Source of the DNA: Girardia tigrina
Lineage: Eukaryota
Length of the DNA stretch: 64,000 nucleotides
Assembly (NCBI GenBank): GCA_001938485.1
Contig: MQRK01171103.1
Location: 1-64,000, forward strand
Direction of reading: 5' to 3'
The notes beneath the pieces were generated by a model. The model had not been told where the DNA came from. It ran no database searches and saw only the letters and a program-made list of their open reading frames with translations. The translations under genes and the position numbers were made by a program. Positions 6,814 through 59,792 of the stretch are shown in pieces; position 1 is the first letter of the stretch, and every line of letters starts with the position of its first letter.

Positions 6814-8079
6814 TCGGGTTAGCCAAAAAGTCATTGCGTTTTTGAGTACGTCCTAATAAAAAGCTTGAAAATATAAAACAATGTGATAAAATTTAAATTC
6901 AATTATATATTCTGAAATATCAATTTTCAGATTATGTTTATACAAAATATTAATTGATTTTGTTTTAATTTATTACTTTACCGTCAATTGGAAATGGAAA
7001 ATAAAAATGAGCATATTCGTCATGTTTTGTTGCATTATTTTCGCAAAGGAAAAACCGCTGTGCAAGCTCATAAGAAGATATGTTTTGTATATGGTAGTGA
7101 CTCCTTAACACTTCGACAGTGTCAATACTGGTTTTCTAAATTTCGTTCTGAAAAATTTCATCTGAAGATGCACCACGCTCCGGTCGACCAGTTGAAGTTG
7201 ATGGCGACAAAATAACAACACTGATCAAATTTAATCCACATATGACGACAAGAGAAGTTGCAGAGACTCTGGAAATATCAAAATCAAGTGTTGGAAGTCA
7301 TTTAAAGAAANNNNNNNNNNNNNNNNNNNNNNNNNNNNNNNNNNNNNNNNNNNNNNNNNNNNNNNNNNNNNNNNNNNNNNNNNTTTGAAGCGAGAATAAA
7401 GTGATCCATTTTTGAAGCGCTTGATTACGGGTGACGAAAAATGGATTGTTTACAACAATGTGGAACGCCGACGATCATGGACAAAACGTGGTGAGCCTGC
7501 CACAACGATCCCAAAAGCAGAAATTCACCAAAAGAAGGTTATGCTTTCCGTCTGGTGGGATTTTAAAGGAATTGTGTTTTTTGAACTCCTTTCGAGGAAT
7601 GAAACCATCAATTCAGACAGATATTGTGATCAGCTAGAGAAATTGGCTCATTCAATTCAACAGGAACATCCTGAATTCTCAAATCGAAAAGGAGTTGTAA
7701 TTCAGTATGATAACGCAAGACCGCATACACGTTTGATTACTCACCAGAAACTCTTATCACTGGGTTTGGAGGTTTTGCCGCACCCACCGTGTTATCCAGA
7801 CTTGGCCCCATCGGATTTTCACTTATTTAGATCATTGAAGAATTCCTTAAACAGAAAAACATTCGCCAGTGATGATGACATCAAATCGTTCCTAGACGGC
7901 TTTTTTGCTGACAAAGGTAAAGGTCTTTATGAATCAGGAATAATGAAGCTACCGGAAAGGTGGAAGAAAGTGATTGAAAATAATGGACAGTATATCGTGT
8001 AAAAATATTTGTGCATCCATGTTATTTTTTGATAATAAATATTTTAGTAAAAAACGCAATGACTATTTTGCCAACCCAA
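6814..8079 (+). mobile_element. Near full-length mariner (DD34D), probably mellifera-like, inactive
   Basis: TA-flanked TIRs TCGGGTTAGCCAAAAAGTCATTGCGTTTTT and AAAAACGCAATGACTATTTTGCCAACCCAA; about 1.27 kb. Transposase at about 6994-8002 with TGDEKW, DNARPH and PDLAPSDFHLF; frameshift near 7160 and N gap 7311-7383. Confidence 0.95.
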
Positions 8080-8519: not shown

Positions 8520-9950
8520 AAACTAATTCGGGTTTTGAGATGAGAATTTGTCTTTTTAATGTGGGCCTCCCATCTCTTTCGAATGGTATTGAGCCTCTAG
8601 GCTCTTTAGAGGGTCCACCACAACTAAAGAATCACTAGCAGCCCCTCGATAGGCTTCCTACGGGGTCGGATAGTTTCGGTCTCCGAGATCTTTTCGGCTT
8701 CCCTGTGAGAAACGACCACCCATGGGTTGTATAGCCATGGTTCTGGATACCTTTGGCTGTATTCGTGGACTTCGTACAGCCGCGAAAGTAATATCTGAAC
8801 TCCCCCTTGCAGTTAGATCTGCAATCCTAAAAGTCAGATGTGTTTCTTCAGTACCTATCGCTTCTTCTACCGCCGTCGAGATAGTCGGGGGGTCCGTCAC
8901 GGATTGAATCTGGTTGCCAGGAATGTTGAGGTTTTCTACGACTCTTTCTTCTGTGGTATTTGTTGTACTGATTTGTGCTTGTGTCATTGTCGGTTCTCCA
9001 ATTTCTTCTGTCTCCTCCAATTTATGATCCCAGTAGAGGTGCCTTGTCAGCCACCCCTTCGTTTTGAAAGACTTTTTATATAGTGTACATGGGTTTTTTA
9101 ATGTACGAGTTTTTACACCCGTGACAATTAAATTTATGAACCAGATTAGGTTGCAATCAACAATTCATTTTTGATTTATTCGAGGAAGCTTTGAACTTTT
9201 GATGTAATTGGAGTTACTTTGAAACTACCTATATTCTTTCAAATAATTTTCTTAAATAGTTTAAATCCTTCAGAATATAATAATTCGATTATTTGTTAGT
9301 GCTATTCAACGTTTTCTTTCTTTAATCATTTTATCCCTTGTTTGTGTACATAATTAGTTCAATGTAACCTTAATGTTGGGATCTATCTTTTTGTTTGAGT
9401 ACATTTGTTCCCTCGTTCGTCCTTTAAGAATATTTAAACCATGCTCTATTATTTTCAAATTGGAAGACAAATTCCGAACTCTGTCATTTAAGCCCTCTAT
9501 CATACCATCCATCTATTTTCCTCATAAAAGTTTGGTGGTTATTTGTAGAGACCTGTATCTGTTGTCTTTCTGAATAATTCACTTCGATATTTTCCATCTA
9601 TCCTATTGAGATGAATGCCAAGAAATGAATATTCGTTATTTACTTCCGATTCATTATTGATAAGTCGCTAAAACCCATTAATAAACATTCATAATGGACA
9701 AAGTAAAGCCGTTTCATATCTTAAAGTCTTTAAATCAATTTTTTAAAAATTTTGCAATATTTTTCTAATAATATCTGAAATAATTAAATTATATTAAAAA
9801 GTGATTCCTTTAAAACTAACTTTTATAAAACTAATATTAAAAATAACAAATACTACATTAAAAATGTTGATGATGGAATAAGAAATTCCAAAACATGTTT
9901 AATAATCCATTTCTTAAAAATGTTTAAATAAAGTTATTTTTCACAAATAA
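8520..9950 (-). mobile_element. Degenerate Penelope-like element (RT thumb to GIY-YIG) with an inverted pLTR at its 5' end, interrupted by an insertion
   Basis: 9095-9645 on the minus strand is homologous to 30650-31190. The GIY-YIG segment SYIKK continues as TNSHLKTRIS at 8523-8562. 9645-9950 on the plus strand is the endonuclease C-terminus (NGQSKAV) plus a pLTR with a degenerate hammerhead, TTGATGA-TGGAAT..ATTCC-AAAACATGT (about 9867-9898). Confidence 0.8.
8563..9094 (-). mobile_element. 532-bp inserted coding fragment: C2H2 zinc finger plus T/E/P-rich linker, possibly from a zinc-finger non-LTR retrotransposon
   Basis: Flanked by the 10-bp direct repeat TTTTTAATGT (8553-62 and 9095-9104). 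One frame is open across the insert apart from a single TAG: PCTLYKKSFKTKGWLTRHLYWDHKLEETEE... Confidence 0.65.
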
Positions 9951-11104: not shown

Positions 11105-11300
11105 ATGGTATAATCGTCATCGTCAGGTACTCAAAATATTTTTGATTGTGCTCCCCAGGATTTTCTTTCTTTAATTATTTTATCCATTATTTTTGTAGAT
11201 AATTTGTTCAATGCCACATTAATGTTGTGATCTATTTACCTGACGATGATAGTTATACCATCGAAATTAATTGTCTTAAAAAATAAAATTTTGTTTTACA
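11105..11300. mobile_element. Small Penelope-like remnant with inverted hammerhead-like pLTR pieces
   Basis: 11160-11236 is homologous to the PLE segment at 9311-9388. CTGACGATGATAGTTATACCATCGAAATTAAT lies on the plus strand at about 11240-11271, with an inverted partial copy at about 11105-11128. Confidence 0.65.
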
Positions 11301-15524: not shown

Positions 15525-16470
15525 CTAAGAAATATTATTTAATTTTTTTCCAGAATGCCTGCCATTAAACTTTCAATTGTAGTTTCTGTCACGTTTTTGG
15601 CTGCATTATTCCACTTGTTCCTGAAATTTACAATTGTCTATGCACTCCTGTTTGTCTTCTTTAATTGCATTTTTACCAGAGCACAATAATTTTCGATTGG
15701 GCGAAGCTTTGGACAATTTGGTGGGTTTACCTCTCTTTGCACCAAATCGACGTTATTGTCTTCGTACCACTTCTTGGCTGCCTTACCATAGTGGCACGAT
15801 GGCAAATCCGGCCAAAAGAGAATAAGACCTCCGTGTTGACTTATGAATGGTAATAAACGCGTTTGCAAGCACTCCTTCACATAGACTTCTGTGTTTATTG
15901 TGCCAGATGTGACAAAGCATTTACTCCTTTTCCTGCATCCACATATAGCCTGCCAAACAAGAAATTTTATGGGAAACTTAGATTTTTTCTTGCTTTTAAA
16001 TATTTGTTTAACTCTTCCTCTCTTAGTTGCAGAGTAAAATTCTTGTCCAGGTATCTGGAAAAACTCGCAGAGCACATAAGTCTCATCATCCATAATGCAA
16101 AATTTTTTCTTCGCAAGTAAACCAGATTTCAACTTTTTGGCTCGCTGCTGCGCCTTAACGTTCTTGTTAGTACTTTTTAACCCATAGACTGTTTAATTTT
16201 CCGAACTGTTTTCTCGCTACAATTTGATTTTTCCGCCAGTTTTCAATTTGATAGACGAGGATTTCTCTCCAACTTTCTTCACATTATATGTATACGAAAT
16301 ACCCTTTCTTCTTCCCGAACCAATTTTTCTGAAAACGTTCAAGTTCTCATTGAAGTTTTGAATAACGTTAGAAACTGTTTTCTGACAAATTGTTGCTTTT
16401 CTGGTAATTGTTTTCTAACTTGATTGTGGACTTTCTTGAGATAAACGAATAATTAATTCGCTACTTCATG
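15525..16470 (-). mobile_element. DD37E (ITmD37E-type) Tc1/mariner transposase pseudogene; ends approximate
   Basis: ORF 15638-16132 contains MDDETY...FWPDLPSCHY...NPPNCPKLRPIE, with exactly 37 residues between the second D and the E. The upstream part is degenerate. Confidence 0.85.
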
Positions 16471-22639: not shown

Positions 22640-23860
22640 TAATCTCGGCACTTTCATGATCTCGGGATCCTGTAATCGATTATTTTTTAATATAATTAAT
22701 TAAAAATTTTTTAAGTTAATTAAATTAATTTTTGGTTTTAGTTAAATTTTTAATAATTTTAATATAAATTTTATTTTTTAAATTAAAATTTTAATATTTT
22801 ATTTTAAATTTTAAACACCACACATTAATACTACTAAAGTCATAAAATGTTTCTTTATTTGAGATGTTCTATACTGGAATCACTGACAATGTTGGAAATA
22901 ATGTCGTAAAGGTCAACTAATATAGCGCTTTATCTTAGTTCTGTCAAAAACAGTTCACTAGCAGAAAATGCTCAAAAAGACTTTGTATAGAATTTCTGGA
23001 AGCCTCCCTGTATGACCGACGACGAGAAGAAAATCGAGCACTCTTCTAATTTGACATTCTATCGCCGCTCTCTTTTCTCTTCCTTCCTTTTAATTTGACC
23101 CAATGTCATATTTCTGCTAGGCTTCCTTCAAACGTTGGTTCATGTCGCTTAACTTCTTTTCTTCAGTTAAGACTTCATTTCCATTTTCACAATCCCTGAC
23201 GACATCCAATTTGTTAGCGAGGTGATGAGTAAATACTTCGCGGCATTCATTTCTTTAGCTATATCTACATTTCCATCCCAACTAAGATATTTATTGCTAA
23301 AGATATCGATGTTAACCTTTCTATCATGTGATTCTGATTTAATTTGATGTGGTAATTTATTTAAAGTGAATCTAACAGCCCCGTTTGCCATCACCAAAGT
23401 ACATTTTCTCTTTGACATCGTTTTTAATAGCAATTTAACTGGCTTCAAAGCTCTATAAATGATTTCAAGTGTGTGCTTTTGTGATTCACTAAATAAGAAT
23501 TCTGAATTAAAACAAATTAAAGCTTTTTTTAAGGACTCCTTCACGAGAATCAATCATTCAAGTTTAGGGATCAAGGAGTTCCATATGGTTTTAATATCCA
23601 ATAAAAGAGATAGCTCCTTTCCATGTTCCTCCTTGATAAATTGCTGAAGCTTCTCATTTTTAACAGGACTTCTTGGAAATATTTTCAAAATATTGCGAAC
23701 TTTTTTTATGAGTTTCGAAAAGTGAGAATTTACTTTACGTTTCTCCGACTTGTGAATGTTACACCCATCGTAACTCATTCTTCATATAAACATTGTTAAG
23801 ATCGTAGTTGTTTTCGGACGAAACCTCGGATGAAGACATTTTTAAAATTTTTATTCAATA
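22640..23860 (-). mobile_element. Degenerate hAT transposon; ends approximate
   Basis: KKVRNILKIFPRSPVKNEKLQ...LLLDIKTIWNS (DxxTRWNS-like motif) and ALKPVKLLLKTMS. C-terminal AFSAS remnant near 22960. Confidence 0.75.
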
Positions 23861-24244
23861 ATAAAAATATTACATAATATTTAATTAAGTTAATTTCTGA
23901 GGAGCACTTTTTTCTTGCACAAACCAATAATATCTGTGAGGAATATTTGGTATGTTGATGTTTTTGTGTAGTGTTTGCATGTTTATATGTTGTGTGTTGA
24001 TATTGGATTGTGTCTAGTGAATCCAAATACTCGACTTTTCAGCTACCCGGGAAATCGAATATTTATTTTTTGAACTACCTGGGTACCCAGGTATTTCGAG
24101 ATGAAAAAAATTCAAGTTCAAGTACACTATGTTTTGTCAATTTATTTTTTAACATAAGAATAATTAGAACATATAAGTATAAAATATATATATTTAATAT
24201 AGAAACATATACGTTTTCATTTATAATTTATTTTTTATTCAAAA

Positions 24245-24700
24245 AATAATATTTGAGGAATACAAGCCCGTCTAAAGTATCCATCTTCAACTGGTTTCGA
24301 ATTTTTGTAACAAATGTTGAATCTACCGAAAATACTCTTTCGCTTACTGACGAAGTAGGTTGAATAGTCATCAATGCGTTGTACAGATTTTAAACTGAGT
24401 CACCTCTTTTGGCATTATTTCCCTCCCAAAGTTTTAGTTCTTTCTCTAATGTGGATTTTCCTCCACTATCTTTCGGAATAGCCATAATATGTTCAATTTT
24501 TTTTGGAGTTAATCATAATTTGAATTAAAAATAACATCCTCATTTCAGAAGCTGGCTCTGGATATGTGTTGATTATAAATTCTAATTTAAACATTCTAAT
24601 TTAAAAATTCTAATATTTCCCTTCTTCTGAAAAACTAAAGTTGTGTCCTTCCTTCCATCAAAGAAGATGTCAAAGAAAGCCGGTTTTTTCTATAGAAATT
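24245..24700 (-). mobile_element. hAT C-terminal dimerisation-domain fragment
   Basis: The minus strand reads YNALMTIQPTSSVSERVFSVDSTFVTKIRNQLKMDTLDGLVFLKYYF (SERxFS motif). Confidence 0.8.
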
Positions 24701-24946: not shown

Positions 24947-25910
24947 CTAGAAATAGGTTTACATTATTTCATTAAAAATGATTTCAATGTAATAAATTAT
25001 GCAGTTTTTAATCGAAAATTATCAGACCATTAATAAATCATAATTTTCCTTTAAACTTATTCTTAGAAATTAAGTATCTTATTATGATTATGTGTTGAAG
25101 AATTTGAATTTTCATTCATACCATAAGAAATTTTTGTGTTTAAGAAAAAAGTAATAATATCACAAATGCAAACTATTTAAATAAATTTATATTTTCAATT
25201 TTCTTAAATATCTGAAGTGTGAGGAATGTTTTGAAATGTTTGTAGATATTGTATATGCTGTATATGATTCGGATTGTGTCTCTCTACCCAGATGGATGAT
25301 TGGTATTTCTTTAATTCCTACTAATTTAAAATAATTTAATTTAGTTTTAAAGTAAAAAGATTGAAAATAATATTTGAATGTAATATTTAATTTTTAATGT
25401 AATTTAAAATTTTAATATATTAATTTAATATGTACTTTTATAAAATGTTTAGATTTAATTTAAACCTATTAGATTCTTTATAATTAATAATTTTTAATAA
25501 AAGCTTTTCATTTATCGAAAAAATTATCCATAAATATTTAATAATAACGTTTATAAAAGTTTATACGAAATGTTAATCATTTAGGCCATTTTAATATAAC
25601 ATTTGAAACGAAAAAATCTTGAATGAAATTTTATTTAAATGAATATTATGTCGGCTTTGTTCTTCCACAAAATCATTGCCAGTCAATAACTTATTATATT
25701 TCTCCTAAAAATATATTTCAATATTTTTGTCTAGAGCAGATTATTCTATCAAATTAACGAGATTAATATATGAATATCTGATATTTTAATTAATGATTTT
25801 TAAATAAAATATTAAAATAATAAATAAAATATTCAAAATTATGCTTTATAAGTGGTAAATGTTTTGATCAAACTTTAATACAGAAAAAGCAATATTAGAA
25901 GGAACCCTAC

Positions 25911-26357
25911 TGTGAGGGCTAATTTGGAATGTTGTAAGTTTGTTGTTTGTATGCTGTTTAGATTTGTGACTCACCTACTCAGATGGGATTGATATGTTTA
26001 TTTATTGATTATTTGAATCTAATGATATTAATTTTAAGTACTAATTAATTTAAGTTTTATAATTATGAATTTTAATAATATTTTTAGTAAAAAATTTTAA
26101 CTTATTAAATTTAATATATTTCAAAAATTAATGTTCACTTAAAAAAATTACGTTATGTCTTTTTATCCAATAAAATTTAAGAAATTAAAAATTAATATTA
26201 AAATCTTTCCCATTCATTGTTTTTTTTTAGATTTGAATACAGTAACAAAAACTATATCAATCAAAGAAAGATGCTCTCTGAAAATTGTTGTGAAGAATCT
26301 GTTTGTGTTGTCAATAAATGTTTACATTCAAATTGTGATGTTGTTAATACCTACACA
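25911..26357 (+). mobile_element. Putative solo LTR (about 447 bp)
   Basis: Begins TGTGAGG, ends CCTACACA (TG..CA, near-inverted termini) and contains AATAAA. Related 5' heads at 11327, 23935, 25218 and 50371. No clean TSD seen. Confidence 0.5.
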
Positions 26358-27483
26358 CAGCAATAATGACTGTTTCAAATAACTGACACCGATAAAGTGA
26401 TGGAAAAATTTGAAAGAAGTATCAGATCGTTTTGAAGAATATCGTTTTGTTTAGAATATTTATGTATTATTCAAAATTCTCATTTTTGTCGTTACTTTTC
26501 ATATTATTCGCGTAAAATTTATTGATTACACAAATTAAATAAAATTAAGTTCCATTCAAAGAAGATTCATTTTCAAGAACTAAATTTTTTGAATGATTTT
26601 TTTACTTAAAGAAGAGAATTAAAATCAAATTAATTTTATTAAAATCCAAGTGTGCGTCAGATTTCAGTAGACCCGCTTCCACCTTTTGCTTATGACTTTT
26701 TTGATTAATTCAATTTAAATAATCACAATTCTCTCATTCCTAACAAAAATGATTTTCTTTATAGTTTGATTAGATGTCAAATATTGTTCTGTTGAAATAT
26801 TAAATATATTTGAAGGAATAGATTTTTTTCTAAAAATAATACTAACTAAATTCTGTTTGATAGTATAAATCAATCATTTCCAGATTTCCTAATGAGTAGT
26901 TTTCAATTTTCAAATTATCCGTATAAATTAATCAATTATTTTTCCATTTAATTATGGAGATTTCTACAGAGACTCGCATCAACGAACCCCCTCCCGCCGA
27001 ATCCTTACACAATGCATCTGATATAATATGTAACGAATTCTGCTCATAATTCTCTGTAAATCTTTATACGACACAGCAGTCAGAATAAAAGTATTTTTCT
27101 AACTAAAAATTTTTAAATTTTTATTGAATTTTATTTTTAGAGTTAAATGATGATAGTGAAAGATATCGCAAATATATGGCATAACATGTAAACAATAAGG
27201 AAACAAACTTGCGGTACTAATTTTAGAGACTATAATTATTTTTATTTCTATGAGGGGTTAGTTTTAAGTTTCGCCAAAATAGTTTATTATTTTTTTAATT
27301 TGAAAATTTAAAAGAAATAAATTAACAATTACAATGTAAGTAAAAATATGATAATAAATACTTATTTAAAATATGTTTACAGTAATAACAATTAACATAT
27401 TTTAATAAAAGTTATAGAATAAGCTAAATAAATTTTAATTAACGGATTAATATTTTCAGAAATATTTTTTTAATAAAATAGTT

Positions 27484-27616
27484 ATTGTAAATTTTTGTAA
27501 GAAAATGTAAATTATTTAAGGGTAAAATTTTTGTAAAAATATAAGATTAATTAAGATTTAATATTGTAAATTTTTTGTAAAAAAATGTAAGATTATTTTA
27601 GATTTAAATTTTTGTA
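27484..27616. repeat. Degenerate AT-rich minisatellite
   Basis: Repeated TAAATTTTTGTAA..A(A)TGTAA(G)ATTATTT units. Confidence 0.55.
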
Positions 27617-28619
27617 TATTTTCAAAATTTAATCGAAAAAATTAATGAACTAATTTTGGGCGAAATAATTGAATTAACAAGAAATTTGTTTAAGTTAGGA
27701 ATTGTAAATATTAATAAATTTTTGGTGGTGTTAAATTATGGCTTTAGAAGGTGATAATAATGAAAGTGGCATAAACGCTACTTACAATTTCAATTAAAGT
27801 TTTTTCAATAATAAATTTTAGCATTTTAATCGAGATCTTTAATGTCAAAATCAGTAATAGTTAGATTACATAAATGTGCTATAAAACCAATCGACCCTTG
27901 TAAAATTAAAATTAATCTACTCCTTTTAAGTTGGAAATTTCATCTAGATCTACCCTATCGCGACAGTTGAATGAAACATTGTTTTTAAATGACAAATATA
28001 ATAAAAACTATTAACATTTATTGTTAAAATTTATTAATGTATTCAAGCGATTTTTTCTGAATATAAAGAAATTAAAAAAGATAAATTATTATTAAAAGTT
28101 TACAATTAAGTTTTTTTCTATATTTTACAAAGTAGTTTTCAGTAAAATATAATATTCTCAAATTCTGTAACTCAGTTGACAACTGAACCTGATAAAAATG
28201 AAATTTGACGGTCTGGAAGGAAATCTAATGAGAAAATTTGATGCAGTTTTGTGGGATTTGACTCTACTTGCAGCCTTACAGGAATACATTTGTTCCGTAT
28301 TCCGGGAGATTACGGAGAGAGAAAACATTATCTGATGGCAACGGCAGACAACTGGGGCATTGTTTCACTCACATTTATCAGTCTTTGAACTTAAAAAATT
28401 TCATTGAATTGTTGCAGAATATTCTTCTTAAAACAATAGACTTATAGAAGCTGATATCAGATAGTAATTTATATTTAACACATAATCTACTGTTATATAT
28501 ATATAATTAATAAATAATTATAAAGGATATATAACCATTGAAAAAAATATTTATGATTTTAATTCTGAAACTATTTCTTTTTATTATTCTTTGAAAATAT
28601 TTTTGAAAATGATTTATTA

Positions 28620-30105
28620 AGCGATTAAAGCTTGCCCATAAGTCCACATCCTTTTTTATACACCAAAGTCAAGCGCAAACTACATACGTATTTAAGATTC
28701 TATGTACTACAAATGAAAGAATAATTGTTCATAAATTGTATTGTATATTCTACTAAATTCTGTAAAAATATAAGCAGTGTCAAAGTGGTTTCAATGAATT
28801 CTATAGTTCAAAGCTTCCTCTAAAATGAATAAAAACCGATTTGTGGATTTTAAGCTAATATGGTTTATAAATTTAATTGTCTCGGGTATTAAATCTCGTA
28901 CATTGGAGAGATAAATCGTCATCTCTAAACCCGGATTAGTGAGCATTCAAAATCAAGTCGATTGAGTAAGGTTCTTCATCATTGGTACATTGTAAAAATA
29001 AAATTTCGTCCGTTTCAAAGGATGAGTTTTCTGTTTAAAAACGGGCATTGATTTACACTATATATGAATCATTATTGATAAGACACTACAACCGGTTAAA
29101 GAAACTTTCTAAATGGACAAAGTAAAGCCGTTTGAATTCTTAAAATCGTTAATTAAAATAAATGAAAAAAATGTCATTAGACGGATACCGTGCCTCCACA
29201 TTAAATTAAAACTCTGAGAAAATCGAAATTTTCTTTGTTAGGAGTCGTTTGTGATAATGTGGGTTACCGAAAATTATAAAACTTTTAACTTCGAAAATAT
29301 TTTCCGTTTTATTGAGTAATTCGAGTTCATTAACGAAAGCTTGACAATCTTCTTCCCTGATAACCGGATCGATTTTCTGTCGTTTGGTCGAGGTCATTTT
29401 GTCAATGATAAAGTCAAATAATTGGAGATCGATTGAGCAGTGTTCTGGTTTTTTAAATACGAAGAGATAAGAAAGCGAAAGTCATGAAAGTTTAAGAGAA
29501 TTCAAATTTTTATTATTAATTTTTATTGGAAATGAAAATAAACCCACTGTAAATGAAAAGCAACCCGTAAACTTTTATTTTTCATTGTCATTACATTGTT
29601 TTTGAAGACTGCACAATCACGCAAACAAATTTGATTAAATTACTTTATTTAAACAAACACAATTTGAATTTTCGATAGTTAACAATTCAATGTCTTTAAA
29701 AATATTCCATAATTTTCATACATATTCGCGTGTTATATTTGAAAATGTTTGATAATTATCTTTAATTTGCTTTATTTAATTATTTTTTATTTAATTATTT
29801 TTATTAAATTACTTTTTTTAATTTAATTATTTTAATTAGTTATTTTATTAATTATATAATTTATTTATATACAATCCTTAAATTTTGGCAAAATGTTCGG
29901 TCAATGAACAATTTACTGCTCCAGTCATTATTATCCAAAAAAATCATAAAAAAATTTATATTAACTGATGAAATCTCGCATTGGTTAACATTTTATTATC
30001 TTACAAATTACATTTTAATTGATAAAAATGGAAAATGAAGTTTCGAAACATGTACAAAAATTAATTTCTTTAAAAAGCTTTAACATAACATTTCAAATAA
30101 ATAAA
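28620..30105 (+). mobile_element. Degenerate Penelope-like element (plus strand), interrupted
   Basis: VYKFNCLGY*ISYIGEINRHL*TRISEH (GIY-YIG) at about 28863-28946 and the IRHYN...NGQSKAV C-terminus at about 29078-29135. A pLTR tail with a decayed hammerhead (GAAACATGT at 30045) resembles 9860-9950. Confidence 0.75.
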
Positions 30106-30111
30106 TATATA

Positions 30112-30146
<35 letters not shown>

Positions 30147-30152
<6 letters not shown>

Positions 30153-31303
30153 AATCTTGTGAACGCAAGTTTGGTATTTCGAAAATATAATTTGATTAAA
30201 GCTTTTTTATATAATTATTGGACATGTTTCGATGTTTACATACATCATCATCAGCAATTTTCGGATGTTTAGTAAATGAATATTGAATTGCTTGAATAAT
30301 ACAATTTTAATAAATATAATTTAAATTAAAAGGTGACGAAGAAATTAAACATTTTTATTTATGAAAATATTATTGGGTAATAATGGCAAAAATATTTTAA
30401 AAATTTTAAGTATTGAAATAATCTTACTTTGTCCATTCTGAATGTTAATTGATGGGTTGTAGTGTCTTATTAGTATAGATTCACAAAACTGTCGTTCGTA
30501 ATGTGAATCAAAACCCTTTTGTAAAACAGAAAACTCATCTTTTGAAATGGANNNNNNNNNNNNNNNNNNNNNNNNNNNNNNNNNNNNNNNNNNNNNNNNN
30601 NNNNNNNNNNNNNNNNNNNNNNNNNNNNNNNNNNNNNNNTTTGTCTCTCCGATGTACGAGTTTTGACACCCATGACAATTAAATTTATATACCAGATTAG
30701 CTTGCAAATCACAAACTGTTTTCGATTTGTTTGAGAGGAAACTTTGAACTTTGGATGTAACAGAGAGTACGTATTGTTCTACAAATACTCTTCTTAAATG
30801 CTCTAAATTCTTCAGAATATGGAATTTTAATGATTTGTTTGTATTCTTCAGTATTTTCTTGTTTTAATTATTTTTTAACTCGTGCATCTATACATAATTT
30901 GTCTAATGTTATCTTAATGTTGTGTTTTATTTGCTTGTTTGTATACATATTGTCCCTCAAGCGCCTTCTAAGAATATTTAAACCGTGATTTGCAATTTCA
31001 AAACTGGACGACAAATTCCAAACTCTGTGAACAAGCCCTTTGATCATACCCTCTCTGTATTTTTCCTCACAAAAACTCTGTGGTGTTGTGTAAAGACCTG
31101 TATCTGNNNCCTTTCTGAATAATTCAGTTTTATAGCCTCCATTCATCCTAGTGACAAGAATGTCCAGAAAGGGAAGTTTATTATCTACTTCCAATTCTGT
31201 GGTAAATTTAATATTCGGATGTAGACCATTCATGAATTTTAGGAATGGTTCTATGAGTGGTCCAATAATTATATAAAAAAGCTTTAATCAAATTATATTT
31301 TCG

Positions 31304-31306
<3 letters not shown>
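30147..31306 (-). mobile_element. 5'-truncated Penelope-like element (RT C-terminal part, GIY-YIG endonuclease, pLTR) inserted in a (TA)n array
   Basis: ORFs MNGLHPNIKFTTELEVDNKLPFLDILV... and VYKFNCHGCQNSYIGET...ESILIRHYNPSINIQ. (TA)n lies on both flanks. A 47-bp perfect inverted repeat at 30177-30223 and 31260-31306. Confidence 0.92.
30217..30260 (-). ncRNA. Minimal type I hammerhead ribozyme (Penelope pLTR type)
   Basis: Minus strand reads ATTG-CTGATGA-T-GATGT atgtaa ACATC-GAAA-CATG-TC|CAAT: intact core, stem I ATTG/CAAT, 5-bp stem II, palindromic ACATGT stem III and GUC cleavage triplet. Confidence 0.85.
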
Positions 31307-31345
<39 letters not shown>

Positions 31346-32267
31346 CTAACTTTTAAACATTTTAATGAAATGCTAAGGAATAATTAGATAAATATAAATT
31401 TAAAAATTTTTTTTCATAAATAAAAGCTGAAAATGTCAGTGGAAAATTAAAAACTGCAAAAAAATAAATTGAAAATCCAATAAAACATTATATTATATTT
31501 ACTTTTTATATTTTTCATTAAAATTCTATTAATATAAAATTTTAAATAGCTTATTTAAATATTATGTTAAAATGTATTGATTTATATCAAGTTTATTAAT
31601 TTTATTTGAAACATTAATTAATTAAATCGTTTTAATAAAATCTGAAAGTTGTTTTACTATTCCTTTATTGGAAATAAACATTTGGATAATAAAATTAGAT
31701 AATTTGTATTCTGTAATAAAAAATTGGCACTGAAACGTTTTAATTCAAATTTTATTCTCCAAATGGCATGGGCAATAACCGATATCAATGACTCCCGAGC
31801 TGCGAAGGTTAATAGAAGCAATTAACTTGTTCCTTTTCTATTTAATTAAACAATTACATAACAATTTCAATAAAATTTTATTTCCCTTTAAATACTCATC
31901 CGATATTGAAAATTATTCATTGACATTAAAATATGGTGACCACCTTTTCCTGTTCAATCTTCAAGTTATATAGGAGGTACTATTTACTTAACCTTAAAAT
32001 TTGCTCCAACGGCTCCCATTAATATTCTTCGCAATTTCTCACAATTGTTAAGCTAAAATCTTATTTTTATTATTACATTTTAAAAGTCAACAATTTTTAA
32101 TTAGAAGATTTATATTCTTTATTTTTAAGACGTGAAATGTTTACATGTTATCTTTAATTATACTACTTAAACTTTTTAAAAAAGAAATTCCTATAATAAA
32201 AAGATCACTATAATATTTTCATATCACTGCATACATTTTATTCAGATATATAGCCATTATTTTATTT

Positions 32268-32313
<46 letters not shown>

Positions 32314-32496
32314 ATCCGGAGTATCGTATAAGTAACACACTGTATCGGATGGTGGCTAGGTTTTTGTGAATTCACATATAAAGAAGAAAAGGTAAAGAAA
32401 GTCAATCAATAATATTGTTTAAAAATTTAATGTTGACCAAATTAATCATTCTATAAAACAGTCATACACGATTAAGGTAAAATTATGACAACTTAC

Positions 32497-32530
32497 TCCA
32501 TTTTTGTGGGTTTATTGTTGACTGTTGACT
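32497..32530 (-). CDS. ror: ROR-like receptor, exon E: 34-nt Ig-CRD linker microexon
   Basis: tttttttcag|AG...GGA|gtaagt, phase 1-2. Exactly bridges exon D (ends phase 1) and exon F (starts phase 2). Encodes (K)STVNNKPTKM(D). Confidence 0.82.
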
Positions 32531-40921: not shown

Positions 40922-41031
40922 TTGGTCTGGTAACTTTCAGATACGAACTGGTGTTGATAGAACCATAATCATTCTCAGCAGTGCAAATGTACGTACCTTC
41001 ATCGCTGAAGTCAACATCTTCAAGCTTTAAT
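40922..41031 (-). CDS. ror: ROR-like receptor, exon D: Ig domain C-terminal half
   Basis: aattcag|A...CCAA|gtaaga, 110 nt, phase 2-1. Encodes LKLEDVDFSDEGTYICTAENDYGSINTSSYLKVTRP (DxGxYxC I-set motif). Confidence 0.93.
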
Positions 41032-41084
41032 CTGAATTGCGCTTATTATATTCTCTTTCTTGATTAAAATAATTATAAACATAC

Positions 41085-41262
41085 GAACTGCCCCAAAATT
41101 CATGTCTTATTTTTATTTTCTGTTTTATATCTTTCAATGGAAGTAAGTCCTTTTTCCAATAATATTGAGGCATTGGTTTGCCAGTGATATCACAATGAAA
41201 GGTTGCCCTTTTTCCAGTGTCAAGGATGAGATTGGTCAGATTTTTATTCAATTTTATGAAAC
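41085..41262 (-). CDS. ror: ROR-like receptor, exon C: Ig domain N-terminal half
   Basis: gttttag|GT...AGTTC|gtatgt, 178 nt, phase 1-2. Encodes (G)FIKLNKNLTNLILDTGKRATFHCDITGKPMPQYYWKKD...FWGS(S). Followed by a 53-nt intron to exon D. Confidence 0.93.
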
Positions 41263-42032
41263 CTAAAACAACAAATTTATATAATAATAATTAAAGTTAC
41301 GGTAATAATTTTAAAGTCACAGAGTATACATAAAAGGGTCACATTTGGATACGATGTGATGTACATTTTTTTATTATATAAGTCTTATTTATGTTTCTAA
41401 TTGTAATACACAAATCTTAAAAACATCAAAATTATGTGCGAATAAGAATAAACATTTGGGAAATATTACTGATATGTACACATATTCTTACAGGTAATAT
41501 TTACTCCAAACTCACAACGACTTTATTAACATATTCATGTAATCTTATATTGTAATTGAATGTATTTGTCAATTGTTCCACTTTTATAAAACAGTTGTTA
41601 GAAACACCTCATAATGTGACGATAACTATGAAATATGTCGTAACTCTATTGTAATATGTATTATCATTTGTTTTAATACTAGTTTTGTTGGTAAAATACA
41701 CAAGTACTTTGTGTATTGGGTTATTTTTACATCTGTCTCTTGAGACATTATAATTTCCTGATTTTATCCTTCAGAATATAAAGTCTCTATAAGAGTATAA
41801 ATAAACGAATAACATTTTATAATTACAATAATATTTTCGTATGATCAAAGAATTTGACTAAAAAATAATAAAAAGCTATATCATAGCTTAAACCAAAGTA
41901 CCTAATAAACAAATGGGTTCAAGTTACGAGTAGTTACCAGACTAATTAGAATATAACAGTTATTAATATTTTTTATAATCTGTAATACGTTGTGTCACGT
42001 AATATGCGATAAATTTGTTGTTTGATCTAGTA

Positions 42033-44557
42033 CAGTTGTTCCTAACCTGCGGGTAATTACCCACAGGGGGGTAAAAAGGCATCCACTAAATTTTAGTGAT
42101 GCCTTCTTTGTTAATAAAAAAAACAGTACAGTAACGCATTTGGTTCATGTAACATATACTCTATTGATATCGAAACTGCGTGTATAAACAAATTTGAACT
42201 GATAGTGGTTGAGCATGTATTCCGACGCATTATGGCGTTTGAGCTCCACAATGCGCACACGCGATGCGCCGTGACTCAGTACCCAGTCTATCGGGCCGTA
42301 TTCGTAGTTTGAGATTTAAACAAGTCATATTTAAACAAGTCAAGTTCAATTGTCTCTCATTGCATATAACTACCAGTTTTGAAATAATTACAATATTATT
42401 TACTTTTTTGACTGTAAGTAGTAACAAACAGTGATAATTAATTATAATTAGTTTTTTCTCAATATTCATAAAAGTAAAAGTTAACATTTTTATTTTTTCC
42501 TTAGATAACTTTTTTATGAATATTTTAGGGGTCATGAGTTCTAATACCTCAAAAAAGCGCTCATATAAAGAAGCATTTTACAATGGGGATTCACGAATAT
42601 TCTAGATAGGAATGTGGAAAAGCCTCAGTGTGTTCTATGTAATAAAGTGCTTAATACAGAGAGCATGAAGCCGAGTAAATTAAAAGAACATTTCAAGAGA
42701 GTTCACAAAGAGTTTGCAGATAAAGATATAGATTTTTTAAGAGAAAAGAGAGTTTTCTGAAGTCTGTGCGATTTGATTCAACAGGAAATATGCAAAAGGC
42801 AAATGAATCATATCTTCAAGCTTCATATCAAATTTCTTATCGTATTGCTATGAATAAAAAACCGCACACTATAGGAGAGGATCTCATCAAACCTTGTTTG
42901 TATGATGCAGTATCACTCGTCATTGGCAAGAAACATGTGGCTAAGATCAAACAAATATCACTTTCAAATACTACAGTTCAAAGCCACATTTCAGACTTGA
43001 GTAACGATATTATGGCAACCATTATTGATGAAATGAAAGGAAGTTCTATGTTTGCACTGCAATTAGATGAGTCTACAGATGTAGCTTTGTGTTCACAGCT
43101 ACTGGCATATTAAAGATGACTGTGTAAAAGAGAAATACCTGTTCTGTAAGTCCTTATCAACCACTACACGTGGAGAAGATATTTTTGAAACGCTGAAACA
43201 GGTTATTGAGGAAAACGATCTGGAGTGGTCAAAGCTGATCGGTATTTGTACAGACGGCCTTCCATGATGGGTGTCCGCTCTGGATTTCAAGCACTCGTGA
43301 AACAAGTTGCTCCTCAAGTTTTATCCTATCATTGTCTCATTCATCGCTACGCTTTGGCTGTTAAGACGCTTCCATCAGAATTACTAAGCACGTTGAATGA
43401 CATAGGGAAAATTTTGAACCATGTTCGTGGCAATGCAACAAACACCAGATTACTTAAAGTTTTATGTTGGTGCCAAATTTAACTCTCTTTTGTACCACAC
43501 AGAGGTACGTTGGTTATCACGAGGCAGGGTTTTGAACAGGGTTTACGAGCTCCGTGAAGAAATAGGATTATTTTTTGAAAAACAGAAAACACAAAAAGAA
43601 AAAGAGTACCTGTCAAAAATAAAAGACAAAACATTTGTTGAAAAGCTAGCGTATCTTGCTGATTTCTTCAGTGAAATCAACAATCTTAATATTTCTTGGC
43701 AAGGAAATATGACGAATATTTTGACAGCACAGGATAAAGTTTCCGGTTTTGTACGTAAATTAGAACTTTACCAAGGCAGAGTGCAAACTGGCGATGTGTC
43801 GATGTTTACACAACTCTGTTAGCAATTGTTAAATACCGAAGCCAGCAAAATCACATTTAGAAATGCCGTGGCTCAACATTTATCTACAATAATAGAGTCA
43901 CTGAAGCAATATTTTCCGGATTTGGATAATCGTCAGTCCAATTCTTGGATATTATGACCCTTTTCTACTGTTGATGACATTTTTAAAGACGAGGATGTAG
44001 CGGCAAAAGTAGAATTTCTTGGACTCCGCGAGAATAATACTTTTAAAGTAGAATTTCAAAATTATGATCTCTGCAAATTTTTGGTTAAAGCAGGTACCGA
44101 ATATTCTGTTATAGCCATCAGAGCTTTAAAATGGTAATAGCCTTCGCCACCACTTATAGATGCGATAGTAGTTTTTCGACTTTAGTTTCATTGAAAACAA
44201 AGCTCAGAAACCGTCTCAATGTGGAATATGACTTGAAATGCGCTTTAAGTGACACTAAACCTAATATAAAAAACGTGTAAATTCAAAACAATTCCAAACT
44301 TCACACTGAATATTTTTAATTCATAGTTAAAATATAAAACAAAGTAATATTGTAATACTGTTTTGCAATTTGTGTTTTTCTATTTACTCACAATGTATCC
44401 AGTTTTCTGACGAACTGCTAGTCAATGACAAATTTGTAATTAATAAACATTAAAATTCGCTTGCATAGTGTGTTTTTATAGCATTTTTAAGTTGGGGTAA
44501 AATCCGTTTTCCTAACAGGTTACAGGGGTAGCAACATAAAAAGGTTAGGAACCACTG
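42033..44557 (+). mobile_element. Full-length hAT transposon, Buster/Charlie (ZBED5/SCAND3-like) type, transposase inactivated
   Basis: TIRs CAGTTGTTCCTAACCT and AGGTTAGGAACCACTG (15/16). 8-bp TSD ATCTAGTA (42025-32, 44558-65) with central TA. Frameshifted ORF at about 42535-44309 with a BED finger (PQCVLC...MKPSKLKEH), KPHTIGE, LDESTD, HCLIHR and HTEVRWLSRG. Confidence 0.96.
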
Positions 44558-52389: not shown

Positions 52390-53195
52390 TTGGATTGGCC
52401 AAAATGTCATTGCCCTTTTTACTAAAATATTTATTATCAAAAAATGACATGGATTCACAAATATTTTTACACGATATACTGTACATTATTTTCAATCACT
52501 TTCTTCCACCTTTCCGGTAGCTTCATTATTCCTGATTCATAAATACCTTTGCATTTGTCAGAGGTAAAAAAGCCGTCTAGGAACGATTTGATGTCATCAT
52601 CACTGCCGAATGTTTTTCTGTTTAAAGAATTCTGCAGTGATCTAAATAAGTGAAAATCCGATGGGGTCAAGTTTGGAGAATACGGTGGGTTCGGTAAAAC
52701 CTCCAAACTCAGTGATAAGTGTTTCTGGCGAGTAATCAAACTTGTATGCGGTCTTGCGTTATCAGGCTGAATTACAACTCCTATTCGATTTGCCAATTCA
52801 GGACGTTCCTGTTGAATTGAATGAGCCAATTTCTCCAGCTGACCACAATATCTGTCTGAATTGATGGTTTCATTCCTCGGAAGGAGTTCAAAAAACACAA
52901 TTCCTTTAAAATTCCACCAGACGGAAAGCATAACCTTCTTTTGGTGAATTTATGCTTTTGGGATCGTTTTGTCAGGCTCACCACGTTTTGTCCATGATCG
53001 TCGGCGTTCCACATTGTTGTAAACAATCCATTTTTCGTCACCCGTAATCAAGAGCTTCAAAAATGGATCACTTTGTTCTCGCTTCAAAAGAGAATGGCAA
53101 ATGTCTATACGTTTCACCAAATGAATTTCTTTCAGTTCATGTGGTAACCAAATATCGAGTTTACTGACGAATCCCAGTTTCTTTAAATGACTTCC
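52390..53195 (-). mobile_element. 5'-truncated mariner, same family as 6814-8079
   Basis: TA|TTGGATTGGCCAAAATGTCATTGC TIR. Closely colinear with 7293-8079; motifs WLPHEL, TGDEKW, DNARPH and YSPNLTPSDFHLF. Confidence 0.95.
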
Positions 53196-55131
53196 CTTTA
53201 TGACTTTTCACTTCAACAAAAAGATAACAAGATTATTCCGTAGACCAAGTAGAGCATGGATATAAAATATCTTTTGATTTACTAGTTTTGAAATAGTAAT
53301 ACATCATAAAAAATGAAACCATAGAAGTAGTTATTTGATGGCACTTGGACAATACACGAAAGAAAGTCACAATTTTGGAAAAAACATGGGCGAATTTATG
53401 ATTTATTCCAATAATTAATGGAAATATGATCAGTTATAAGGATAATCATTAAAATTGTTTACGTATTTAAAAAATTAATCACATATTGTGAGTAGGTGCA
53501 GTCACAAAAACACCGTGACTCACACACGGCACTGTTAACAGCATTGCATCGTCTAATTGACGATAGCGGTGATTTGAATAATGACCCTTATCTTTACTGT
53601 CTAATCGACCGGATGGAGGACGTCACAAAATAATTATTCTAATCTCTTCATCCATTATACCTCATGTCAAAAAATCATATCCATTAAAAATTTACACTTT
53701 GTTCCTTTTTTAACTAAAATCTCAATCAAAACCGCTGTATTTAATCATCGTAAGACCGCGTTTCATAAATCAAGACATTAGATGTTCTAAAAATCATAAA
53801 AAAATGTAACAGTTTTCGCGGGGATCAAACCATGATTAGCAATTTGCGTAGGTACATCACGATCCTTCAAAAAATCGGTCGGCATTAAACAGCTCATGGT
53901 ACAATAAAACACTATCAATTATACTTTGTCAATTTAATTTGCTGACTTTGCCCCATTAAAATTAGAACGGTTTTTAAATGTGTCAACTTTTGACTTAACA
54001 GCAGCAATAAAATGTGATTAATAAATAAATTGGCGATGTTCAATCTTGTCTTGTTGGACAAAATTAAAGACTGCTAAACTAGCGGAGTGATAATTTGCAC
54101 TGATTATTTTCATTTTTAGTGTCAAAGACTGGCATCTGAATGACACTGGAATCCTGGATTAATTAAGTTATGTTTTGGGACTAAAATTAGTCATTTGAGG
54201 TAATGTTTATCAGCTGCTGGCCCCATTTCGTGCAGCAGGGTAATTCAATTCAAATAGCTGACGGATAACTTGGCGTAAATAACGCTCAAATATTGTAATA
54301 ATTTTGTCAAACGGGATTGAAATACTGCCGATAGAAATAAGAAGCTATCTGAAATTTCATATGAAGATGGATAATAACCATCAACATTTATGGACATCTT
54401 GTACAATAAAATAATTAATATTAAGGAAACAGCTAAGACAATGAAAATAAGCATTAAGTTATTAGAGTCTACTGCCAATGTAAGAATAGAATCAGAAGGG
54501 TTATACAGTAACTACGTTCGACGGAACTTATTTTCAAAGTCATATTAAACTGGAAAGGAATTTGATAACTATTAAAAACTATTTATGAAAAAAGAAAATT
54601 AGGAGAATATAAAAAGTGGATTTGATAAATACATATTACAATTCTTTTAAATTTTCAATTATTGCTTCTTCTATTTCGGCAGAATATTAATCAAATCAAT
54701 TGCAAAATTAACTTTCTATGAATGTTTATTTTATTCAATATTATCAAGCATTCACAAACATAGGTAAAATAATATTGACTAGAACTTTACATCCTTTATC
54801 CATCTGGCGACAGTTAAAGAGTTTTCACCAAGTTTGAATTTAGTCCCAAAATGCAAATTTGATTTTGTCTTCAGAATTTTCTTTAATGTTTTGCACATTT
54901 AATTATTTTTCTAACAGATATAAATGTATCAAAATCCAAAGCAATATTATTAATTGTATGTGTATTAACTGCATTTTTAATTTAATTTTTGTGAGACTGT
55001 TATTCTACAGAATGTTTCTCTAAAAGTAAAGTATTTTTAAACAAAGGTCCTCACTCTCAACTTTATAAAAGTCAACAAAATATAATTTTTCAAATTTCCA
55101 ACGAAAGATAAAAATAATAGTAAAATCTAAC

Positions 55132-58019: not shown

Positions 58020-58086
58020 ACAATTTGTAATTTTTTGTAAATATTAAATGTAGTTCAAAGTATGATGTGCCCCTTATATGTATATA

Positions 58087-58138
<52 letters not shown>

Positions 58139-58229
58139 AAAAATACTTATTTTTACTCTATNACAATTTGTAATTTTTTGTAAATATTAAATGTAGTTCA
58201 AAGTATGATGTGCCCCTTATATGTATATA

Positions 58230-58275
<46 letters not shown>

Positions 58276-58298
58276 AAAAATACTTATTTTTACTCTAT
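58020..58298. other. Tandem duplication of about 140 bp around a single N; probable assembly overlap artefact
   Basis: 58020-58161 is repeated at 58163-58298, differing only in (TA)n length and separated by the N at 58162. Confidence 0.85.
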
Positions 58299-59792
58299 AA
58301 AGTGCAGCAAAGATACTTTAAAAGGAATCTGAAAGACTGATACTTTATTCCTGACAGCTAATAGTTATGAAAATGCAAAACAAATTTTAGTTCAATTTGT
58401 AATACAGATTGATAAAAAATTTATTGACAAATTGTATATATTATACTAATAATTATACCGAGTACAAATGAGTAACTGTAAGAGAAGAACGAAAGGAAAT
58501 TGTTAAATCCACAAAAGAGTAGTGTCATTTCATCAAAAAAAGTTAATCAACGCTAAAAATTTTATATCTTCCATGTATTAAAGGATGTTATTGCTCCACC
58601 GAAATACATAACGAAAATGGTAAAAATGGGACCCGTATTGCCAAATTAAGAAAAATGTTTAAAATAAACTGACATTCGCTTTATAATTGCAGCTAAAATG
58701 CTTAATATAATATATTTATTCGATATAATTATTCACCTTATATTTTAAATTTTCTATTTTCTAAAGGTTGTTTTTTGAAATTAATTTTTTGGACATTTTA
58801 AAATTTCGAAACGACCTCTCTTATATTTCAGCTTGTCTTACATTAAGGACACTATGGGATAATATTAAAGTTGTTTTATACAATGATAATTAGAAAACAG
58901 ATGGATTTGCTCATACATTTAATTGGTAGAAACTTTTGCACTTTCATGAGCATGAAAATAATTTGATCTCATGAAAATATATGTTTTGAAGTAGGAATAT
59001 TATCTTTAATATTGATCATCAATTCGTTTGGTATCACAACTCCAAATAAGGTTATTTCCTAAAGGATATAAAACCTGAAACCAAATCTGATACTAAAAAT
59101 GAGTTTCTATTGTAAGTATTATTTTTTTACAAATTAATATTGCAACAACGTTGATTTACTGAGGTTTCGAAAGGTGTAGAAAACGGTATTCTATCTGATC
59201 GAAAGACTTTTGGCGGTTAAATTTTTGAAAAGATACACTTCTTGTTATTAAAATTTTGTTAGTAAATATTGACTATAAATAAACGAAATCTAAAAAATTT
59301 TTAAATATGTAATAATACACAAAAATTCTGAAAATAGTTTGGGTAGAAACGTTGCAAGAAATTACATTTATCTTGTTTTATACATTTGATATATATATAT
59401 ATATATATATGATTGTATGCAGGTACGTTATGAATATACTCAAAAACTATAAAACCGATCGCGAACCAACTTTGAAAAATAAATTTTTTTGTCATTGCAG
59501 TTTTTATTTTAATTTCAATTGAGTGCCAACAACTAGTTTCGCCATTTCGTCATTTTCAGTTGACCAATTGAAATTTTCAAATTTGAATATTTTATCAGTT
59601 ATTCCTAATATGGAGGCCGTGAATAATATTTTGGGGTCCATCAAACAAAATTAATTTTCAATTCTGAAAGCGTTTAATCACATAGTTCTTCATTTGAATG
59701 TTTTATGTTTTTTCTATATTTATAAGAAAATCTTTTTCGACCAATAAGATCATTATTTTCACAGATTTCATGGCCTTATAATTATGAAATAA

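Follow-up and report, generated by a model that had tools for sequence, protein, structure and literature searches.

The closest described relatives of the motif reported here are the minimal hammerhead ribozymes (min-HHRs) of metazoan Penelope-like elements (PLEs). In the cleavage assays that PMC4209133 describes, cleavage of a Schistosoma min-HHR was undetectable for the single unit and low for dimers. In the in vitro experiments presented in PMC11167929, the hammerhead of the Anolis Poseidon element was cleaved only with the ORF protein of the element, and cleavage was not needed for insertion; the RNA-seq data discussed in the corresponding part of that source contained no ends at the Poseidon cut site. 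PLE insertion units have been described as an inverted terminal repeat (pLTR) with a one-sided tail (PMC3846280 and PMC8557442; the tail also in PMC11167929), which PMC11167929 attributes to two neighboring RT start sites on AT-rich nicks. According to PMC8557442, which calls the function of PLE hammerheads unclear, a hallmark of Penelope is a GIY-YIG endonuclease in which two cysteines separate the GIY and YIG halves. Among intronic ribozymes, the CPEB3 HDV-like ribozyme is conserved and present at a single locus, and its monomer cleaves with a half-life of 2-3 min (PMC10919898); the same source cites Fong 2009 for the observation that slow intronic ribozymes leave splicing unaffected.

Here, we describe a minimal hammerhead in a 64-kb stretch of Girardia tigrina DNA (hereafter, the window), located in an intron of a ror-like gene. 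The initial annotation of this DNA presented the motif as a lone element poised for trans-activation. We find that it is the end of a dead PLE and that a perfectly complementary 49-nt stretch of the same insertion lies antisense to the cut site.

A minimal hammerhead in sense orientation within a ror-like intron

The motif and the surrounding parts of the host gene are listed below, in window coordinates.

30217-30260, minus strand: minimal type I hammerhead, with a 4-bp stem I, CUGAUGA, an extra U, a 5-bp stem II, GAAA, ACAUGU, and GUC
24947-32496, minus strand: host intron of 7,550 nt, with the donor side taken from spliced contigs and the acceptor placed from AG and reading phase
32497-32530, minus strand: linker micro-exon of 34 nt between the Ig and CRD exons (spliced contigs and phase scan)
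40922-41264, minus strand: two Ig-domain exons, split by a 53-nt GT-AG intron (Pfam and spliced contigs)

Applying the hammerhead residue numbering (A9, G10.1-C11.1, G16.2-U16.1-C17), stem I of 4 bp is formed by AUUG (30258-30255) and CAAU (30220-30217) on the minus strand, the core CUGAUGA occupies 30254-30248 on the same strand, and a single extra U (U30247) lies between A9 and position 10.1. Stem II (GAUGU/ACAUC, 5 bp, loop AUGUAA), which is followed by GAAA, opens with the G10.1-C11.1 pair (G30246-C30231). The palindrome ACAUGU is located at 30227-30222, leaving stem III a loop of 2 nt, and with C17 at 30221, the predicted cut site falls between 30221 and 30220. Thus, the motif contains all core elements of a minimal hammerhead (CUGANGA, GAAA, and the NUH triplet), the short helix I (4 bp) combined with a tiny palindromic helix III, and the extra nucleotide and G10.1-C11.1 pair described for PLE min-HHRs in PMC4209133. 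In a descriptor search of both strands of the window, this motif was the sole match; together with a reading of the minus strand, the search bears out the complete core with paired stems I and II, extra U, and ACAUGU palindrome that had been annotated initially. An Rfam scan of the window yielded no match at the gathering score, and none of the four weak hits in 29000-31500 was a hammerhead. The folding z-score of the 44-mer (-1.06) shows that its stability is not unusual. All 44 nt are identical to the commonest form of the family to which the motif belongs, so that the motif itself is intact.

The host gene is encoded on the minus strand and contains Ig (Pfam I-set), Fz/CRD, and Kringle exons in ROR order. 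The best PDB match of the CRD exon was ROR2 (E=0.019), a homology search with the CRD exon gave no match, and a kringle homology search returned unnamed multi-kringle proteins; no kinase exons were present in the ORF list of the window, to which that search was confined. The gene appears to be a ror-like receptor gene, a name that follows the order of the ectodomains. Two RNA contigs from two studies, X1 (2,758 nt) and X2 (2,901 nt), splice out the 53-nt inter-Ig intron, and their loose ends match 32500-32530, so that the last Ig exon is joined to the micro-exon; an independent phase scan recovered the same 34-nt micro-exon at 32497-32530. These contigs were aligned on the Ig exons only, and the join from the micro-exon to the CRD exon is one that we infer. 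No RNA matches were listed over 28000-30200. The hammerhead is located between the micro-exon and the first CRD exon, and the predicted cut is 2.3 kb past the donor, with another 5.3 kb to the acceptor. It is in sense orientation to the ror pre-mRNA, as initially proposed, the motif and the Ig, Fz, and kringle exons all being on the minus strand. The proposed placement between Ig and CRD exons holds for the region, with the correction that the upstream exon is the 34-nt micro-exon and the intron spans 24947-32496.

The hammerhead is part of the terminal repeat of a dead Penelope-like insertion

The motif is part of the pLTR of a 1.16-kb, 5'-truncated Penelope-like retrotransposon copy with the following components.

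30097-30147, no strand: (AT)n tract, left insertion boundary (repeat scan)
30148-30174, minus strand: tail of ~27 nt, present at one insertion end only; long and short end forms are seen across loci
30148-30345, minus strand: 3' terminal repeat (pLTR) with the hammerhead, ~80-100% identical over the matched parts to other genome loci
30345-31257, minus strand: single-ORF remnant with the C-terminal part of the RT and a GIY-YIG-type endonuclease (ORF and alignment to copy L180)
31260-31308, plus strand: 49-nt copy of the pLTR end in inverted orientation, from the GUC triplet onward and fully complementary to 30175-30223
31306-31341, no strand: (AT)18 tract, right insertion boundary (repeat scan)

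Remnants of RT and endonuclease lie directly upstream of the hammerhead on the same strand. An in-frame stop at 30868-30870 and a frameshift around 30770-30790 disrupt the ORF, and the 5' truncation, which cuts the ORF just downstream of the YVDD motif, has removed that motif. An assembly gap of 88 N (30552-30639) separates the two arms; family copies have ~94 bases there, and the ORF is collinear across the gap. The remnant is 88% and 64% identical at the amino-acid level to the 479-aa open frame of copy L180, the 64% stretch including the N gap, and its RT part shows 93-96% DNA identity to other genome copies. Close relatives of the RT part number at least 150, at ~88-92% amino-acid identity, among 23,931 first-look candidates. 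A Pfam scan of the ORF remnant of the window alone gave no match, and RVT_1 (Pfam) was matched by all four tested family ORFs and by L180. Longer copies contain a GIY-YIG-type motif, LVY-KFNCHGCQNS-YIG, read by eye, with two cysteines between its halves; Pfam GIY-YIG was not called on copies L180 and L183, and PF01541 was carried by 4 of the 120 listed homologues. The RT and endonuclease remnants and the pLTR context agree with the initial assignment of the motif to the Penelope type.

Both insertion ends run into (AT)n, and an inverted pLTR copy, a one-sided tail, and an AT-rich target are all present: what sits in the ror intron, flanked by (AT)n on either side, is a dead Penelope-like retrotransposon truncated at its 5' end. 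By analogy with known Penelope biology, such a copy would be born from an endonuclease nick in AT-rich DNA and reverse transcription, which would start at two neighboring sites on the RNA and leave one end with the tail and the other without it. A search for an empty-site allele with the right flank recovered only this contig and two weak partial matches. The motif can be intact without local selection because it is identical to 1,706 other copies (identical 42-mers in the genome). The earlier view of a lone monomer, tolerated as such, is correct in that the window contains no second intact core; given the end of a Penelope-like insertion with so many identical 42-mers genome-wide, and a copy unmarked by selection, the explanation of its tolerance is not supported. 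Non-LTR retrozymes are non-coding tandem units, each bounded by a hammerhead. We rejected this class for the motif, the window containing one intact core flanked by a coding remnant.

Several other elements were detected in the window. An older Penelope-like remnant (28743-29160, plus strand) has 74% DNA identity to L180, and a stretch at ~30031-30096 (plus strand) resembles a decayed hammerhead plus tail on the opposite strand, with ~70% matches. The younger copy appears to have inserted into the AT-rich end of the older Penelope-like remnant. Additional decayed Penelope-like ORF fragments, some of them inverted, are found in other introns of the same gene (8523-9731 and 11141-11239). Broken ORFs at 6958-8002 (plus), 52467-53207 (minus), 15638-16414 (minus), 42569-44280 (plus), and 23167-24399 (minus) are, we presume from their motifs, DNA-transposon-like, of the mariner/Tc1-like and hAT-like types. 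Two near-identical 143-base units surround an N at 58020-58299 and are possibly an assembly duplication.

Predicted folding of the pre-mRNA and the inverted-arm lock

The inverted 49-nt arm is located at the truncation point and starts 3 nt upstream of the cut site. In the ror pre-mRNA, this arm (31260-31308), which the initial reading of an intact hammerhead left out, is antisense to the cleavage triplet GUC and to the 3' (CAAU) strand of stem I. Folding predicted at equilibrium (37 C, protein-free) points to three barriers to cleavage.

First, stem III, with its 2-nt loop, would be unable to close in the monomer. The isolated 44-mer is predicted to prefer a rod in which the core bases A6-U7-G8 pair with the palindrome; the predicted probability of stem I in this 44-mer is 0.61-0.86, and the open catalytic skeleton makes up 0.0005 of its ensemble. 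Second, upstream pLTR sequence would hold the 5' strand of stem I in this copy. Because of this pairing, the predicted stem I probability falls to 0.002-0.003 in the pLTR of this copy; the value for the entire insertion is 0.0. Among the 17 copies examined, a single one has a G at 30291, which is predicted to strengthen the upstream pairing, and 9 keep a predicted stem I probability above 0.1. Third, with the polymerase ~10 nt past the cut, the arm would zip up with G16.2-U16.1-C17 as well as with the 3' half of stem I. The arm is transcribed ~1 kb before the hammerhead, and all 49 of its 49 bases are complementary to 30223-30175. The predicted energy of the arm-pLTR duplex is -62.7 kcal/mol, and the predicted pairing probability with the arm is 0.97-1.0 at 30223-30217. 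With the transcript ending at 30217, the lock has a predicted probability below 0.01, and it is complete by 30210; this interval of a few nucleotides before the lock forms counts against silence.

The arm is thus predicted to dominate the folding of the pre-mRNA around the cut site. We consider it very probable that the motif is the terminal-repeat hammerhead of a dead PLE, predicted to be catalytically silent in the ror pre-mRNA, and likely a neutral passenger removed with the intron.

Truncated ends as a possible record of cleavage

Penelope hammerheads might cut in vivo during retrotransposition and leave a record in truncated ends, and inverted ends covering the cut site might act as antisense locks that spare sense intronic copies, such as the one in the window, from purging. 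This scenario is improbable. The no-core filter was passed by 313 tail copies, of which 100 were listed and 90 examined, 10 near-duplicates being skipped. From the 77 distinct rows scored, we dropped 12 with the whole core region as well as L030, L045, and L075, which were not filter-selected, leaving 62. The junctions of these 62 distinct filtered copies, drawn from the 100 of 313 listed, spread from -24 to +16. Four of the 62 fall at +1, compared to 1.7-1.8 expected (P ~0.09-0.10), and 23 fall between -5 and +2, compared to ~12-13 expected (P ~0.001-0.002), the latter range being chosen post hoc and the rows not being independent. Several of the 62 rows are fold-back palindromes or A/T runs, and pausing or fold-back at hairpins explains the junction excess as well as cleavage does. 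By-eye tallies of a second set (100 listed of 171) showed ~40 rows that keep GUCC across the site, some of them whole motifs with small deletions, along with ~10 rows starting at +1 and ~20 at +2, without a clean spike.

Four of the latter 100 rows (contigs C96240, C148469, C161835, and C195952) are without six stem III-region bases ending at the cut site, which may reflect one lineage or slippage between two CA repeats. We also considered the inverted arm in the window as a copy of the 3' cleavage product of the ribozyme. Since the arm retains the GUC that precedes the cut, we rejected this origin for the locus.

Possible effects on ror expression

The insertion could be slightly deleterious or regulatory without catalysis, through A-to-I editing, small RNAs, or slowed splicing induced by the 49-bp plus (AU)n hairpin. 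The perfect inverted arms, ~1 kb apart, are compatible with such a role. The duplex, however, is short and 1.2 kb from the nearest exon, and inverted ends of this kind are common in the family (both tail orientations in 2 of 28 and 5 of 28 short loci), so that we regard an effect of the hairpin as highly improbable.

Even less probable is the mechanism suggested in the initial annotation, whereby Penelope transcripts, perhaps aided by protein, would dimerize in trans via ACAUGU and cut the ror pre-mRNA before splicing, lowering ror output at times of element activity. The core is intact and in sense orientation, thousands of potential partners share the palindrome, and the 5.3 kb to the next exon is on the order of the acting distance of the CPEB3 ribozyme (PMC10919898); furthermore, activation of a Penelope hammerhead by protein was shown in vitro for the Anolis element (PMC11167929), and the ORF protein of the element could, in principle, bind the copy in the window. 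The folding predictions do not bear this mechanism out: the cleavage triplet lies in the predicted 49-bp duplex, whose strength is tenfold that of the 6-bp trans helix, for which only -4.6 to -6.0 kcal/mol and a Kd of ~6e-5 M are predicted, and even without the arm, the predicted probability of stem I in the context of this copy remains below 1%. The crude predicted net cost of the active dimer relative to two folded monomers is ~+2.4 kcal/mol. Moreover, engineered dimers cut only weakly in the assays of PMC4209133, and nothing marks the copy as special among the 1,706 identical ones. Given the predicted lock and the published findings of no cleavage by monomers and weak cleavage by dimers, ror output is unlikely to be coupled to the activity of the transposon.

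The hammerhead family in the genome

The core pattern of the family has 6,456 matches in the genome, compared to 0 for the reversed control, and a looser pattern has 10,442, compared to 11 control matches, so the motif is not due to chance. Matches to the family core divide by contig strand into 3,287 and 3,169, figures that are uninformative on sense depletion in introns. A chance look-alike or an assembly artefact, to which the z-score of only -1.06, the absence of an Rfam match, and the N gap 290 bases away might point, can practically be dismissed in view of these counts, a core that is conserved while the stems vary across families, and the collinearity of the ORF across the gap.

Copy L177 carries the same pLTR repeat 5' of its ORF, and tail-present and tail-less end forms recur across loci. 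A two-sided change (G-C to U-A) distinguishes stem II of the subfamilies. A second abundant family of minimal hammerheads has its own palindrome, ACGCGU, and other stems I and II (L189, L191, and L195-L202). From these patterns of sequence change, it appears that the hammerhead fold is maintained by selection in the transposon lineages and not at the ror locus. ACGCGU would mismatch ACAUGU, and dimers would therefore be family-specific. The AUG within ACAUGU (30224-30226, minus strand) is the likely start codon of the element. Of 81 distinct copies, 46 have a frame from this AUG that stays open over 15 codons, and in L177 (191-865), reading continues from the tail into the N-terminal ORF. Cleavage would separate the likely start codon from the ORF.

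The ror locus as such matters little, being one among thousands of dead Penelope ends. It does show that a sense intronic hammerhead has to be judged together with its flanks, where the inverted end of the element itself can cover the cut site. With more than 10,000 such motifs, the genome is well suited to addressing whether they cut in vivo, by means of junction statistics and of the depletion of sense copies in introns.

Comparison with known hammerheads and Penelope-like elements

A narrow literature search on antisense locking of Penelope hammerheads in host introns yielded one paper, on an unrelated subject. The motif resembles the min-HHRs of metazoan PLEs in the features set out by Cervera and de la Pena (2014, PMC4209133): the type I topology with a short helix I, the extra nucleotide A9/10.1, the G10.1-C11.1 pair, the palindromic 15.2-16.2 region, and the occurrence as thousands of mostly single copies from truncated elements. 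Helix II, of 7-8 bp in the Schistosoma families presented there, is 5 bp in the window, and the 2-nt palindromic insert of the Drosophila-type variants is likewise found in the window motif. Unlike the min-HHRs described in that source, the copy in the window carries an antisense arm of its own that covers the cut site.

With the EN+ PLE units described by Arkhipova (2013, PMC3846280), Craig (2021, PMC8557442), and Frangieh (2024, PMC11167929), the insertion shares the 5' truncation with an adjacent inverted end copy, the tail at one end, the AT-rich target, and the overlap of the hammerhead with the probable ORF start. It differs from the units as described there in that the inverted copy comprises only 49 nt, its start lying 3 nt ahead of the cut site. 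The tail, quoted as 30-40 bp for EN+ PLE units, is ~27 nt in the window.

As in the case of the CPEB3 ribozyme, as described in PMC10919898, and the intronic hammerheads of amniotes, the motif in the window is of a self-cleaving type, lies in an intron on the sense strand, and is separated from the next exon by several kb. In contrast to the CPEB3 ribozyme, the motif in the window is a recent, high-copy transposon end that is predicted to be inactive. The motif is a real hammerhead of an already known kind that is most likely inert at the ror locus.
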